From Thermoproteota archaeon (GTDB taxonomy: Archaea; Asgardarchaeota; Jordiarchaeia; Jordiarchaeales; Freyrarchaeaceae): 36,964 nucleotides of DNA. Position 1 is the stretch's first letter. Each line of letters starts with the position of its first letter. The DNA lies in assembly GCA_029258835.1 (NCBI GenBank), contig JAPDJY010000075.1:1-36964 (forward strand). The letters are read 5' to 3'. The notes under the pieces are model-generated. The model saw only the letters and a list, made by a program, of their open reading frames with translations, did not search any database and had not been told where the DNA came from. A program made the position numbers and the translations under genes. Below, in pieces: positions 30,808 to 35,571 of the stretch.

Positions 30808-32124
30808 TCATGGGAAGTGCCATAGTGGAACGAGCTTTATGGGCGGCTTATTTCTTGTGTTAAGTCGTTCGTAAGGCCTCGTGAGGTGGCGTTGGGCCTG
30901 TGGAGGAGGGATGTAAAGGCCTTCCTTGATGTTACGTGCGAAATGAACGGCTCTCTTCCCTGTCAGGAGCCGCTTACCACATCGTTTACATTTAAAACCT
31001 TTTCCTCTTCCTGCCGAGGTCATCCTTTTACCACAGTTTGGACATAGAGGGTTTTCCCACTTGATTAAAGGGGAAAGCTTGATGACCTCCAGTTTCTCTA
31101 TATTTACTGTTTTAGGATGCTTTGACGATGGAGGGCGGACCCCACCGTAGACACGCACCACGTCGCCTGGTATGAGCTTACTCACAATCCACCTGAAGGC
31201 TTTAGTCGGCTCGTAGGCTGCGCAGTCTATTTCTCCTGTTTCATCTCCTATTTTAACGATCACATGCCCACCTGGTATAATCGTCGGATTACACGTTACC
31301 TTTCCCTCCACTATTACAGACATGTAAGGGCGGAGCTCGGCAATTTTAAGTTTTAACCGTAAGTGGGCATCCGTACCTTGGTTTGACCGGAAGATAACCC
31401 ATCTCTCTATCGGCTCGTAAACCCTAACTAAAGTGTGCGCGTAAAGCACGTCCTCCGGCGTCTCGCCTCTTATCCCATAAAGCACAGGGTCTGGGCCATG
31501 AGGCGTTATGAGAATTCTTTCCCCGTCAATGTTGTTAAATGTGCGATGCCCTGTTAAGCGATCCATTTCCCTTACAGACCCGGGATCCACTCTCCTAGGC
31601 TTCCCCCGGTTTTCACGAGTCCTATATGCTATTAGTTCATAAGTGGAGTCATCTTCTAGCAGCGCCCCCACCGCAGCTAGTGCCCCTATGATGCCTCTCC
31701 CCTTCTTGAAGGCATGTACTTCTACGCCACATTTTTCAGCGACGCGTCTAGCTTCCTCCAAGCTAATCATGTCGTATAACGCTTTCTCAGAGAAGCGCCT
31801 GAGCTTTACGGGAACCTGGCCTACGAAGTAGGCTACACCAGGGTTCGTGCCGGGAAATGATAGGTCTGAAAAGTTTTCCACTTCTTCTAGTACAAGGGAT
31901 TTAACTTTTTCAATGTCCTCCTCGTCTACTTTAAGACGTAAGCATATACATCCATTACCCCTAGTTCTAAACGGGATGTTAGGATTTAACCTTACTAGGA
32001 GAGGGTAATCTTTAAATTCAACGTTAAACCTTGAAAGTTTCTCTACTAGGACCGCACATAAGTACGTTGTACATCCTCCTTTAGGGGAGTCTGTGTCATC
32101 GAACCCTATGTGGATCAGAGGCAT
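30808..32124 (-). CDS. tiaS: tRNA(Ile2) agmatinylcytidine synthetase
   Basis: GFDDTDS..GGCTTY, LVRLNPNIP.RTRGNG, GRGIIGALAA, PHGPDPVLYGIRG, NQGTDAH, AAYEPT, zinc ribbon, RHLTRP. Confidence 0.97.
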   Translation of the reverse strand: MPLIHIGFDDTDSPKGGCTTYLCAVLVEKLSRFNVEFKDYPLLVRLNPNIPFRTRGNGCICLRLKVDEEDIEKVKSLVLEEVENFSDLSFPGTNPGVAYFVGQVPVKLRRFSEKALYDMISLEEARRVAEKCGVEVHAFKKGRGIIGALAAVGALLEDDSTYELIAYRTRENRGKPRRVDPGSVREMDRLTGHRTFNNIDGERILITPHGPDPVLYGIRGETPEDVLYAHTLVRVYEPIERWVIFRSNQGTDAHLRLKLKIAELRPYMSVIVEGKVTCNPTIIPGGHVIVKIGDETGEIDCAAYEPTKAFRWIVSKLIPGDVVRVYGGVRPPSSKHPKTVNIEKLEVIKLSPLIKWENPLCPNCGKRMTSAGRGKGFKCKRCGKRLLTGKRAVHFARNIKEGLYIPPPQAQRHLTRPYERLNTRNKPPIKLVPLWHFP

Positions 32125-32383
32125 GAGAGCCCTCCTCCAAGCATCGTTTACAGACTGTTTCTTCTCTCTTCTTCACGCTGCAATCCTCGCAGACGAGCAA
32201 ACCGCAGTAGTTGCAAAACCTGTCTGCAAGCATTTTCCCGCATAGCTCGCATAGGCTTTCAATGCAGTAAGTGCACTTGCCGTCCCTAAAACAGTTCTTG
32301 CAGACATGCCGCCCACACAGACTGCACGTAAATTCACCTAGCTGAGAGCCGCACACATCACACAGACCGCTCATCTTAACCAC
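32096..32383 (-). CDS. Small Cys-rich protein with 8 CxxC motifs (tandem HIT/B-box-like zinc fingers)
   Basis: CDVC, CSLC, CKNC, CTYC, CELC, CNYC, CEDC, CKRC. Overlaps the tiaS start. Confidence 0.85.
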   Translation of the reverse strand: MVKMSGLCDVCGSQLGEFTCSLCGRHVCKNCFRDGKCTYCIESLCELCGKMLADRFCNYCGLLVCEDCSVKKREETVCKRCLEEGSHASDPHRVR

Positions 32384-32657
32384 TTAACGAATAGTCCAAT
32401 TGAAAGCATCACTCTGAAAAAATACCATGAGAGGCTTAAATGTTCATTGGCAATGTCTTTTAAAGGGGTTGTGACACGTGAATTCTATCCTTTCAAATCT
32501 TAACTTGTAAGCATCCAATTAATTCTAATGGATAAGAAAAAATGCGGTGAAGTGATAGGAGAGCTTATATCAAATCCCTCAAAATAATTAAGAGATGGCA
32601 AGCTGGTGGTTGAGTAGTTGCTTTTCGCCGTCTAAAAGGAAGCGGTGAAGCTAGGGG

Positions 32658-32900
32658 TTAAGTTTTCCCCTCTGCCACGATTAGCGTTAAAGTCGATACT
32701 ACACCCTTTATCCTCCTTATCTGCCAGATCACGGCTTCTTTTAGCCTTTCCATGGAGTCGGTTTGAACCTTAGCCAGGACGTCGTAGACGCCATATAGGA
32801 TGTACGCTTCAATAACTCCCTCGATCTCTGACACAGCCTTTAAAACTGTTTCCTCATTTGCTGGCTCGGTGTTGATCAAAACAAAGGCGGTTGGCACCAC
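32658..32900 (-). CDS. Stand-alone Lrp/AsnC ligand-binding (RAM) domain protein
   Basis: 'PTAFVLIN', 'LYGVYDVLAKV', 'IRRIKGVVSTLTLI'; no HTH. GTG start at 32897 or 32900 after AAGGTGA. Confidence 0.9.
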   Translation of the reverse strand: MVPTAFVLINTEPANEETVLKAVSEIEGVIEAYILYGVYDVLAKVQTDSMERLKEAVIWQIRRIKGVVSTLTLIVAEGKT

Positions 32901-33002
32901 ACTCACCTTTACAAGCACTTCCTGCTAAGAAGCCTTTAAAACTTCTTTTATATAGCTGTTTCCCTAACGTTTCATTGGCTTTCACGATCTGGAGGAGGAC
33001 AC

Positions 33003-33506
33003 GTGGATCCTAGAATTTTCGTGTATCATGAGAGAGCATGTGACCCTTTCAAGTGTACCGCTTTAAGGCTTGCACGCCTTGGGAAGGTTAGAGTTGTGTG
33101 GCGTGTAAGCGACGTCCCTCGCGGATGCATAGTGTTAAACCCCGTCTCTTCTACCGCCTTGTCACCAGCAGATAGGGAAGCTGCCGAGAGGAGAGGGATA
33201 GTAGCCGTAGATTGCTCTTGGAAAAATCTAAGCAGAGTCTTTAAGTGTATAAGAGGGGTGCACAGGGCTTTACCATTTCTGGTCGCCGCGAACCCAATAA
33301 ATTATGGAATGCCAACAAAACTCAGCACAGCTGAGGCCGTGGCGGCGACGCTGTACATACTCGGCTTCAAGAAGGAGGCTGAGAGGATTTTAGCATGTTT
33401 TAAATGGGGAGCAAGCTTCTTAGAATTAAACCGTGAACTACTGGAAAAATACTCCTCGGCGAAGAACAGCGAAGAAATAATCGAGATACAAAGCAACTAC
33501 CTTTAA
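33003..33506 (+). CDS. tsr3: 16S rRNA aminocarboxypropyltransferase Tsr3
   Basis: CDP.KCT, LSPAD, DCSW, RALPFLVAANP.NYG...KLSTAEA, FKWG..FLELN. Confidence 0.97.
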   Translation: MDPRIFVYHERACDPFKCTALRLARLGKVRVVWRVSDVPRGCIVLNPVSSTALSPADREAAERRGIVAVDCSWKNLSRVFKCIRGVHRALPFLVAANPINYGMPTKLSTAEAVAATLYILGFKKEAERILACFKWGASFLELNRELLEKYSSAKNSEEIIEIQSNYL

Positions 33507-33515
33507 GGTATGAGG

Positions 33516-33919
33516 GTGAGGCGACGTGCCAGGAGTAATCCACCTTCTGTTGAGGAGGCGCCGTCGCCGGCGACTCCCTGGCGGCATTCGGCTATGCGCC
33601 CTACCCGCCGCCTCCCGTGGGAGAGTCATCGGCAGCCTATTCGGGCTTGCATCCCCGAGGATGGCCGTTTCAACGGTCCCACCTACGTCCTCAACGGGTT
33701 ATCTCAGCGCTTGTTGCCAAGCGCCTTCTCGGGAAGCCCTCAGCCGCCTCATCGTCATCTCGTAGGTGGACGTGTCGTTTGCAGCCCCAGTAAGGGTTTC
33801 TGCTCCAGAGCCAGGCCTCTCAGCCTGCGCCTCGCGGCGCTCGGGTCCCACATGATGGGTGGAATTTCCTCGGTGCTTTTCGTAAGCACCGTTAGCCGCC
33901 CTCTGGCCCGTCGCCTCAC
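33516..33919 (-). ncRNA. rnpB: Archaeal type A RNase P RNA (about 404 nt as encoded, about 385 nt if the 19-nt insertion is spliced out)
   Basis: P1 GUGAGGCGACG/CGUCGCCUCAC, CR-I GAGGAAAUUCCACC pairing with CR-V AACAGAAGGUGGAUUA, P3 CGGUGCUU/AAGCACCG, CR-III UUGAAACG, AUGCAAG, and P12 with GA/UGA K-turn-like motifs. Confidence 0.97.
33779..33797 (-). other. Putative 19-nt bulge-helix-bulge (tRNA-type) intron in RNase P RNA
   Basis: Minus strand reads GCAG-AA^A-CCCU-UACU-GGGG-CUGC-AA^A-CGACACG: a 4-bp helix with a 3-nt A-run 3' of it on each strand. Excision gives GGAGCAGAAACGACACG. Confidence 0.75.
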
Positions 33920-33942
33920 ATGAAACTGTATAGTGCCCGCAC

Positions 33943-33958
33943 ATAATAAAGCTTTTTA
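33943..33958 (-). promoter_or_regulatory. BRE/TATA promoter of RNase P RNA
   Basis: Minus strand AAAAAGC-TTTATTAT, 24-31 nt upstream of the P1 5' end at 33919. Confidence 0.75.
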
Positions 33959-34396
33959 GGGACGGGGTTGTTGCTTCAGTCTCCTCGATTTTGGAACGAA
34001 GTTTCTGAGCGTGCCGCCTGCAGCCTTCCCACATCCTAGGAAGTCGCCCCTGTTTTTCACGATAACGTATCCTTTAAGGGAGGGATTTACGGGTATGGTT
34101 TCGCCCTTAAGCCACTTATCAGCTAGGCTATCGTCTACCTCGACAATGTTCTTTTTTGCTTCCGCTCCGACCATTTGGGACCCTTCGATGGATAGACGTA
34201 TTCCGTCAGGCATGATCGTCGCAAAGTATATTCCCATGGCTAAGGGGTTCTCTATGTGCGTCTTTTCAAGTAACGTTTCGGAGACTGCACGTATCCTTTT
34301 CCTACCTGAAAGAAGCAGCCTTACCCCTTCGATTCTTCGGACCCCAAACTGTTCCTCAAGTTTACGCCATATTTCTTCTTCGTTTTCAAAGCTCAT
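33956..34396 (-). CDS. Nip7/RsmF-C-terminal-like PUA-domain RNA-binding protein
   Basis: 'MGIYFA....GIRLSIEGSQMVG..AKKNIVEV...WLKG...GYVIVK...DFLGCG....LRNFVPKSRR'. ATGA overlap with the methyltransferase gene. Confidence 0.85.
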   Translation of the reverse strand: MSFENEEEIWRKLEEQFGVRRIEGVRLLLSGRKRIRAVSETLLEKTHIENPLAMGIYFATIMPDGIRLSIEGSQMVGAEAKKNIVEVDDSLADKWLKGETIPVNPSLKGYVIVKNRGDFLGCGKAAGGTLRNFVPKSRRLKQQPRP

Positions 34397-35341
34397 TTTG
34401 ATCCCTCTTTTCTAATTCTTGCAATGAAAAATCCGTCTGTACGGTTGTCATGTGGGTATATCCGTGTGCACCATTCAACGCTGTCATGTAGCCTCCTTCC
34501 ATCCCATTCAACTATGCCAGGACGTGTCTTAAGACCTTTAACATTGAATGGCTCTACGACCGCGTCCCTTTCCTTTGAGAGGAGGAAATCTACTACGACC
34601 TCGTTTTCCTCAGGGTGGATGCTGCATGTTGAGTAGACAAGGATTCCGTCGGATTTCAGCATCTTAAAACCTGCGAGTATAAGGCTTCTCTGAAGCATAG
34701 AGAGATGTCTTACCCGCCTCTCCGTAAACCTTGGAGGCCTCTTTCCTAGCAGATGGCCGGATGAAGAGCAGGGAGCGTCGACGAGAACCTTATCAAATCG
34801 GTCTTTCACCAGCAACGGCATTCTCCTACCATCAAACATCGTCACCACGGTATTCAGGACGCCGCACAGCTGCAGATTATGGCCAAGCGACGTTATTCTT
34901 TTAAGGGAGATGTCGTTAGCGACTATTCCACCTTTATTCTCCATAATTTGGGCCATCTGCGTGGTCTTTGAGCCGGGAGCTGCACACACGTCTAAAACGT
35001 AATCGTCTTGTCCCAGCTCGAGAAAAAGAGGGGGGATCATGCTTCCCCCTTCTTGCATGTAAACGTACCCTAGCAAGTGTTCACGTGTGAAAAGGTCCGA
35101 GGGCTTCACCTTAGGCTCTACGATTCTAAAGCCGGCATCGAAACCAGCCTAATGGTTTCAGTTTAACGCCTCTCTCCCTTGCTATCCGCCGGATATCATG
35201 CACTCCTTTCTTAAGCGTATTCACTCTCACGAAAAACTCGGGGTATTCTTCGAGGCATGTGAGTACGTCGTCAACTTCGTCTTGAATTAGACGCTTGTAC
35301 AGGCCTATCAGCTCTGGCGGCAGATTTAGGTGGTTCCTCAA
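34393..35341 (-). CDS. NOP2/RsmB/NSUN-family RNA m5C methyltransferase split by a +1 frameshift at about 35141
   Basis: The N-part (TTG 35341 after GGAGG; RVNTLK) stops at 35126-35128. The C-part in the +1 frame has QE..SMIPP, DVCAAPGSKT, DAPCS, YSTCS, PH...TDGFF. Removing one T gives about 315 aa reading LKPLGWFDAGFRI. Confidence 0.88.
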
Positions 35342-35373
35342 CCTTCCTCGCTCCTCCGTTAAGTAATTTACAT

Positions 35374-35571
35374 CTACATACCCATTGAAGTTAATATTAT
35401 GTGGATGCCAAGGCCCAAAGTTAACGACGCTATACATGCAGCTAAAAACAGCTTCTTAATATTTTGCTCGGGGTCCCTCAGGGCAAATAGAAACCATGCT
35501 GTTACGATGACCCCTATTATGCTCAGGAGGTATCCAGCCCATGCAGGTACACCCCATGGTGGAATGAACAC
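35374..35571 (-). CDS. Small 2-TM membrane protein
   Basis: 65 aa with two hydrophobic segments; GGGAGG upstream. Confidence 0.65.
   Translation of the reverse strand: MFIPPWGVPAWAGYLLSIIGVIVTAWFLFALRDPEQNIKKLFLAACIASLTLGLGIHIILTSMGM

Follow-up and report, generated by a model that had tools for sequence, protein, structure and literature searches.

RNase P RNA (RPR) is one of the few universal ribozymes. Introns bounded by a bulge-helix-bulge (BHB) motif occur in archaeal 16S and 23S rRNA genes, where they are usually tens to hundreds of nucleotides long and often encode homing endonucleases. In archaeal pre-tRNAs, non-canonical BHB introns were reportedly described by Marck and Grosjean in 2003, and the cbf5 pre-mRNA of Crenarchaeota is said to carry a BHB intron as well (work attributed to Watanabe in 2002 and Yokobori in 2009). 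Furthermore, a circularly permuted SRP RNA of Thermoproteus is reportedly matured by BHB cleavage and ligation, as credited to Plagens et al. in 2015.

The element analysed here, a 19-nt insert in the RPR gene of an archaeon of the Asgard class Jordarchaeia (which includes Freyarchaeia), has something in common with each of these systems. With the Thermoproteus SRP RNA it would share a universal ribonucleoprotein RNA as host, one whose function needs EndA and a ligase, but the RPR insert is an ordinary intron inside its gene, with exons joined into a linear RNA, whereas the SRP RNA is permuted and then circularized. The cbf5 intron provides the precedent for EndA splicing of a transcript that is neither tRNA nor rRNA; its host, though, is protein-coding, while RPR is a catalytic RNA. 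As in the rRNA introns and in the BHB processing stems of archaeal pre-rRNA (PMC10515664, PMC7038931), an EndA-type motif lies in or beside a large and structured non-coding RNA belonging to the translation apparatus; unlike the rRNA introns, however, that of RPR is a micro-intron of 19 nt in a ribozyme. The resemblance to the relaxed HBh′ introns of archaeal pre-tRNAs, including those of Asgard archaea (PMC5829648; PMC11291895; bioRxiv 10.64898/2026.10.13.758758), extends to a 4-bp central helix (H) with one strand from the exon and one from the intron, two 3-nt bulges that hold the cut sites, a hairpin on the intron side, micro-intron size (15–28 nt in the class) and the same predicted enzymes, i.e. 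an (αβ)2 EndA with an L1 (Crenarchaea-specific, CSL) loop together with RtcB. The differences are that the host is the RNase P ribozyme, that the exon strand of H is universally conserved CR-II sequence, and that the exon-exon helix h is wholly absent. Finally, the spliced RNA matches all 288 positions of the type A archaeal model with CR-II contiguous (RF00373; PMC6565675), whereas the encoded gene is split within CR-II. A full-text literature search, which covered the Jordarchaeia and Freyarchaeia genome papers and the 2026 preprint on Asgard tRNA introns, returned no paper that describes an RNase P RNA gene with an intron. Taken as a whole, the evidence makes it very probable that the CR-II of this RPR gene contains a BHB intron of 19 nt, of the relaxed HBh′ type, which EndA would cut out, with RtcB joining the exons.

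The window, i.e. the whole stretch of DNA that was analysed, is 36,964 nt long. Its sole Rfam match is RF00373, the archaeal RPR model, found by cmscan at 176.9 bits (E 4.4e-51; gathering score 84) over model positions 1–288. The gene encodes 388 nt, of which 369 nt make up the spliced RNA. Its parts are as follows.

33524–33911, minus strand: RNase P RNA gene (type A-like archaeal RPR), a full-length RF00373 match with RNA contigs over 33512–33907
33798–33911, minus strand: 5′ exon (P1 to the 5′ half of P11), ending in ...GGAGCAGAA, from the cmscan alignment and the junction-crossing RNA contigs of runs X9 and X13
33800–33803, minus strand: exon strand GCAG of central helix H, within CR-II, pairing with 33781–33784 in the minimum free energy (MFE) folds and paired in 8/8 relatives
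33797–33799, minus strand: bulge 1, AAA, the 5′ splice site; the 3-nt spacing between H and h′ is invariant across variants
33779–33797, minus strand: 19-nt BHB-type intron, an insert relative to Rfam, missing from the X9 and X13 RNA contigs and kept in the X17 DNA contig
33785–33796, minus strand: inner hairpin h′, CCCU-UACU-GGGG (33796–33793, 33792–33789 and 33788–33785), variable in sequence and length among relatives
33781–33784, minus strand: intron strand of H, CUGC in most variants and CUGU in two
33778–33780, minus strand: bulge 2, AAA, the 3′ splice site, lacking an outer helix h and open towards the exon; the X14 RNA contig stops matching at 33780
33524–33778, minus strand: 3′ exon, beginning with ACGACACG and holding the rest of CR-II, P12, CR-III and the 3′ halves of P10 to P1, from the cmscan alignment and RNA contigs
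33771–33777, minus strand: continuation of CR-II, CGACACG, read from the sequence
33555–33579, minus strand: GC-rich hairpin of 25 nt, specific to the lineage and absent from the Rfam model, lying before the 3′ side of CR-V, opened by cmscan as an insert and retained in RNA (ungapped in X9 and X14)

The cmscan alignment opens the 19-nt insert in J11/12 of CR-II, between model segments ...ACAGAA and ACGAcACg, so that the gene reads CAGAA on the 5′ side of the insert and ACGACACG on its 3′ side. Together with its 5′ flank, the insert folds as GCAG / AAA / CCCU-UACU-GGGG / CUGC / AAA, in which each strand of a central helix of 4 bp is followed by a 3-nt bulge and the inner hairpin closes the intron side. 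This arrangement was recovered in the MFE folds of both a 51-nt region and the whole 388-nt RNA. Each bulge sits 3′ of its own strand of the central helix, which is the handedness of pre-tRNA introns at position 37/38. On the exon side, GGA faces CGA and no pairs form, so that helix h is absent while h′ is present. Since no exon-exon helix can form, the motif fits only the relaxed HBh′ class and not the strict hBHBh′ class. The first-pass annotation, which had proposed this intron from the letters of the DNA, gave every coordinate of the motif correctly. It had also placed the insert in J11/12 and regarded the motif as a relaxed one, with an exon-side helix that it called weak.

The intron was placed at 33779–33797 by the rule that the endonuclease cuts after the second nucleotide of each bulge. 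Application of this rule yields exactly the contiguous CR-II consensus, the product being GGAGCAGAAACGACACG. The uninterrupted form of CR-II that the first-pass annotation had given for type A archaeal RNase P RNAs agrees with the Rfam consensus and with 59 Asgard homologues. A direct repeat, AAAC, flanks the intron, so that five placements of the deletion, from 33777–33795 through 33781–33799, give the same product. No group I or group II self-splicing intron was matched among the Rfam models in the window, and the insert is 19 nt long, whereas the ribozyme core of such introns takes up hundreds of nucleotides.

The shape by itself is weak evidence, because the local fold has no unusual stability (z = +0.53) and loose BHB shapes are common in RPRs. 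A loose shape finder returned 4081 matches over 67 RNase P RNAs, or about 61 per RPR, and was dropped as a motif test for this lack of specificity. By a hand estimate, the chance that a random 19-mer at this place would give a perfect in-register 4-bp H and 4-bp h′ is about 1e-4. What lifts the motif above chance is the combination of an insertion in a segment that runs on unbroken in 59/59 other Asgard RPRs, restoration of the consensus by the cut rule, the same geometry in nine variants and the absence of the insert from RNA.

The RNA evidence consists of assembled contigs, rather than raw reads, of three metatranscriptome runs (X9, X13 and X14) that derive from one marine-sediment sample and one study, and that were compared, together with a DNA run from that sample (X17), over positions 33300–34100. 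Contig record 6 of X9 (359 nt, 33521–33898, depth 6) and record 2 of X13 (277 nt, 33612–33907, depth 28) each differ from the window in one respect only, namely that 19 letters are absent at 33777, which is the left-aligned form of a deletion of 33779–33797. The 19 nt are thus removed from the RNA and the exons are ligated, in a register that the RNA defines to within the five equivalent AAAC placements. In record 4 of X14, an RNA contig of depth 168, the alignment ends at 33780, which is the last position common to the spliced and unspliced forms, and is followed by 6 letters unlike the unspliced DNA; this is the pattern expected of a spliced junction. DNA contig record 5 of X17 (33586–33808, depth 2) keeps the 19 nt that the RNA lacks; its alignment is ungapped, although on one side it ends just 11 nt past the intron. 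No circular form of the intron was seen. The removal of 33779–33797 to give the restored CR-II, as put forward in the first-pass annotation, is therefore borne out by RNA contigs from two runs and by DNA of the same sample.

The P12 extension and the 33555–33579 insert served as an internal control. Both are kept in the RNA contigs, so the gap does not reflect a general trimming of inserts, and both are true expansion segments. The long P12 extension (about 33690–33750) is the second lineage-specific insert of this RPR relative to the Rfam model. Furthermore, RNA cover is limited to the RPR gene, as expected for a stable small RNA. No intronless RPR copy was found in the genome assembly, and the nearest relatives are at most 86% identical; the RNA contigs thus come from this species. 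A search with a 71-nt query centred on the intron, for which only 3 words were sampled, hit 11 DNA runs and listed no RNA run, which with so few words is not evidence either way. Separately, record 1 of RNA run X13 is a 95-nt palindromic contig made up of 33582–33641, GCTTT, and 33612–33641 again in the same record orientation; lying in the 3′ domain of RPR, it is probably an assembly or library artefact.

In a set of genomes from 11 species of the class, in two families, the insert is present at the same RPR site in 8/8 of the RNase P RNAs found. For the other three assemblies (G003, G005 and G007), neither the covariance model nor BLAST returned an RPR gene, which is uninformative as these assemblies are incomplete. 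By contrast with the 8/8, the segment xAG-AAACG is uninterrupted in 59/59 RPRs of the other sampled Asgard families, and several of these, e.g. in family f16, are identical to the predicted spliced product in this segment. A scan of 185,579 species genomes with the motif pattern gave matches only in Jordarchaeia and in three bacterial genomes (L055, L057 and L058), the latter being about the number expected by chance and set aside. A metagenome scan, with a pattern that itself required the insert, added three further variants.

Altogether, nine different introns were collected from genomes and metagenome contigs, with lengths of 15, 19, 23 and 28 nt; the RPR of the complete Freyarchaeia genome CP147778.1, from the sister family, has an insert of 23 nt. 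All nine have the exon strand GCAG, AAA in both bulges, an inner stem of 2–7 bp and unrelated loops; the intron strand is CUGC in 7/9 variants and CUGU, which makes a G-U pair, in G006 and L092. That is, the 4-bp helix and the 3-nt bulges are kept by the 8/8 relatives and the three metagenome variants, and hairpins of another geometry, which the first-pass annotation had named among the observations that would speak against an intron, were not seen among them. Across the alignment of the 8 genomes, all cells of H (100%) are paired, including a single change from G-C to G-U, while in h′ one C-G pair has become U-A by a compensatory change. When the partners were slid by 1–3 columns, pairing fell from 95% to 13–37%. 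Covariation is thin, one double change being one evolutionary event, since the class is small and H has conserved CR-II sequence as its exon strand. The register is constant despite the change in length, a property that is required of an endonuclease substrate and not of a free expansion hairpin. A single gain in an ancestor shared by both families of the class, followed by retention, is the probable history of the intron.

In another, intron-rich Asgard family (f13), the RPRs of two complete 2.8-Mb genomes (L021 and L069) are 397–400 nt long and have a low-occupancy insert in the P3 region, at about RPR positions 27–50. It gives loose BHB-like matches and may simply be a longer P3.

Three other explanations of the hairpin or of the RNA gap have to be weighed against an intron. 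The hairpin could be a lineage-specific expansion of J11/12 that is kept in the mature RPR and whose likeness to a BHB is coincidental. Archaeal RPRs do carry lineage-specific inserts, of which this gene has two others (P12 and 33555–33579), and the bare shape is as common, and the local fold as ordinary in stability, as given above. Yet precisely these 19 nt are missing from two RNA contigs in which the other inserts are kept, none of the 59 RPRs from other Asgard families is interrupted at the site, and the register of helix and bulges is invariant while the insert varies from 15 to 28 nt; moreover, a retained insert would split the T-loop anchor (PMC6565675). A retained expansion is thus very improbable. 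A fault in the RNA data themselves, either an assembly error or reverse transcriptase switching templates from one AAAC repeat to the other past the hairpin, deserves slightly more weight but is still a poor candidate. A deletion around a hairpin, bounded by a 4-nt direct repeat, is a context in which reverse transcriptase can skip, and the evidence consists of contigs only, with every RNA run from a single sample. However, in two runs the dominant path of assembly is the one with the deletion, the much deeper third contig breaks at the same place, and no unspliced RNA contig was seen among those aligned. A repeat of 4 nt is also far shorter than the 31-letter index words, which makes a collapse in word-based assembly unlikely, and an artefact would leave unexplained both the geometry conserved across two families and the exact match of the product to universal CR-II.

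Finally, the RNA might stem from a co-occurring strain whose DNA has no insert, given that metagenomic samples are mixtures of strains and that the DNA comparison draws on one run, with a contig depth of only 2. Against such a presence/absence polymorphism, the RNA contigs show 0 other differences from the window over 359 and 277 nt, no copy without the intron occurs in the assembly, and every RPR gene recovered from the class carries the insert (bearing in mind that the metagenome pattern demanded it). A strain difference is therefore extremely improbable, and removal of an intron by splicing is the reading followed below.

Two EndA paralogues are present in the genome, each with the domains PF01974 and PF02778. 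The first, a protein of 190 aa, most closely resembles the catalytic α subunit of EndA from Aeropyrum pernix (3P1Z_B, E 4e-46), has an intact Tyr/His/Lys triad and carries a Lys (K45) that aligns with K44 of the CSL/L1 loop of the A. pernix protein. The second is β-like, because an Ala occupies the position of the catalytic His of Methanocaldococcus jannaschii EndA. RtcB is present as well (606.9 bits). EndAs of the (αβ)2 type with an L1 loop cut relaxed motifs, and Asgard archaea have this type (PMC5829648). The protein sequences are thus consistent with a two-subunit enzyme with the L1/CSL lysine, and this would fit the need for a broad-specificity EndA that had been anticipated from the relaxed motif. 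EndA and RtcB would accordingly be the candidates for the enzymes that act on the RPR intron.

The same genome (2.7 Mb, 94.7% complete) appears to be rich in tRNA introns. ARAGORN found no more than 8 tRNA genes without an interruption, and a search with the Rfam tRNA model gave 12 matches; at this completeness, most tRNA genes must be interrupted, which agrees with the 92–95% of tRNA genes reported as interrupted in Freyarchaeia (PMC11291895). Only the uninterrupted count of ARAGORN was used, the calls of its intron mode being implausible introns of 700–1900 nt. Splicing in silico and rescanning of 9 tRNA loci gave 19–22-nt HBh′ micro-introns without h, e.g. in tRNA-Lys at C8:6776–6871, with a result that is noisy because many tRNA genes have several introns. 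It is therefore suggestive only that several tRNA genes hold micro-introns of 19–22 nt without an exon helix.

A further hairpin was noted in the SRP RNA of this genome, where an insert with BHB geometry occupies the apical loop of helix 8 (L080:1725–1754; contig C3, about 131046–131075), outside the window. It reads CGGG-AGA-GCG-GUGGA-UGC-CUCG-AUG, with CGGG and CUCG paired as the helix, AGA and AUG as the bulges and an inner stem of 3 bp. Cut by the BHB rule, the loop would lose 18 nt (L080:1731–1748) and read AGGCCCGGGAGGGAGCA, exactly as in the uninterrupted helix 8 of other Asgard SRP RNAs. Among the SRP RNAs of the class, a variable hairpin of 18 to about 33 nt is found at this site in 9/9, with H and the bulges kept and with U-to-C changes that leave H paired. 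The insert is thus a candidate for a second intron in a non-coding RNA of this genome, as judged from the comparison of sequences.

The neighbours of the RPR gene are RNA-modification genes (window positions 30808–35437), as follows.

30808–32124, minus strand: tiaS
33003–33506, plus strand: tsr3-like gene (Ribo_biogen_C)
33956–34396, minus strand: ORF with a PUA domain
34393–35109, minus strand: RsmB/F-type methyltransferase

In addition, a frame break separates the N-terminal part of a NOP2/NSUN-type m5C methyltransferase from its catalytic part (35110–35155, minus strand). A 1-nt shift at UGG-UUU-C brings back W-F-D-A-G-F, matching the family, and the break could be either an assembly indel or programmed recoding. 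A 34-nt BHB candidate over the break (35111–35144) was rejected, since it would remove the W-x3-GF segment of the family, which the 1-nt shift restores.

For the RPR intron, the following course of events can be proposed. In the primary transcript, the CR-II exon strand GCAG would pair with CUGC at the intron's 3′ end, making up the central helix of 4 bp, the AAA after each strand of H would form a 3-nt bulge, and the short hairpin would close the intron side. A two-subunit α/β EndA with a broad-specificity loop would then cut in both AAA bulges, and RtcB would ligate the exons into the contiguous ...GCAGAAACGACACG.... In the holoenzyme structure of M. jannaschii, CR-II and CR-III form the T-loop anchor for tRNA (PMC6565675). 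The restored segment would likewise combine with CR-III into the interleaved T-loop anchor that docks the tRNA elbow. In the unspliced RNA, on the other hand, a 19-nt hairpin would stand in CR-II and four CR-II bases would be held in H, so that folding of the anchor should fail. Because the insert and the sequestration of bases in H should block the T-loop fold, unspliced RPR is probably a poor enzyme. Coupling of 5′ processing to splicing in a regulatory sense may follow from such an arrangement.

With this intron, the hosts of BHB introns, that is, tRNA, rRNA and cbf5 mRNA, would extend to a catalytic RNA. It also provides a compact, conserved and RNA-verified substrate for studying how an Asgard EndA recognizes relaxed motifs. 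In practice, when RNase P and SRP RNAs of such lineages are annotated with covariance models, the mature RNA is under-scored or mis-drawn unless micro-introns are removed.

A more far-reaching view, which we offer as speculation that will quite likely prove wrong, is that RPR splicing is an obligatory and possibly regulated licensing step, with the tRNA-splicing machinery acting as a hub for core non-coding ribonucleoproteins, the SRP RNA candidate included. If this were true, tRNA 5′ maturation would be switched on only where EndA and RtcB capacity exists, in a cell in which nearly every tRNA needs splicing, and unspliced RPR might be an inactive reserve or an enzyme with an altered choice of substrate. 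Apart from any such licensing, RNase P of this archaeon appears to depend on the tRNA-splicing machinery. This would be a new dependency between two tRNA-processing pathways, in which the enzymes of tRNA splicing have to act before the T-loop anchor of RNase P can form, and it would operate within the archaeal group that is closest to eukaryotes.
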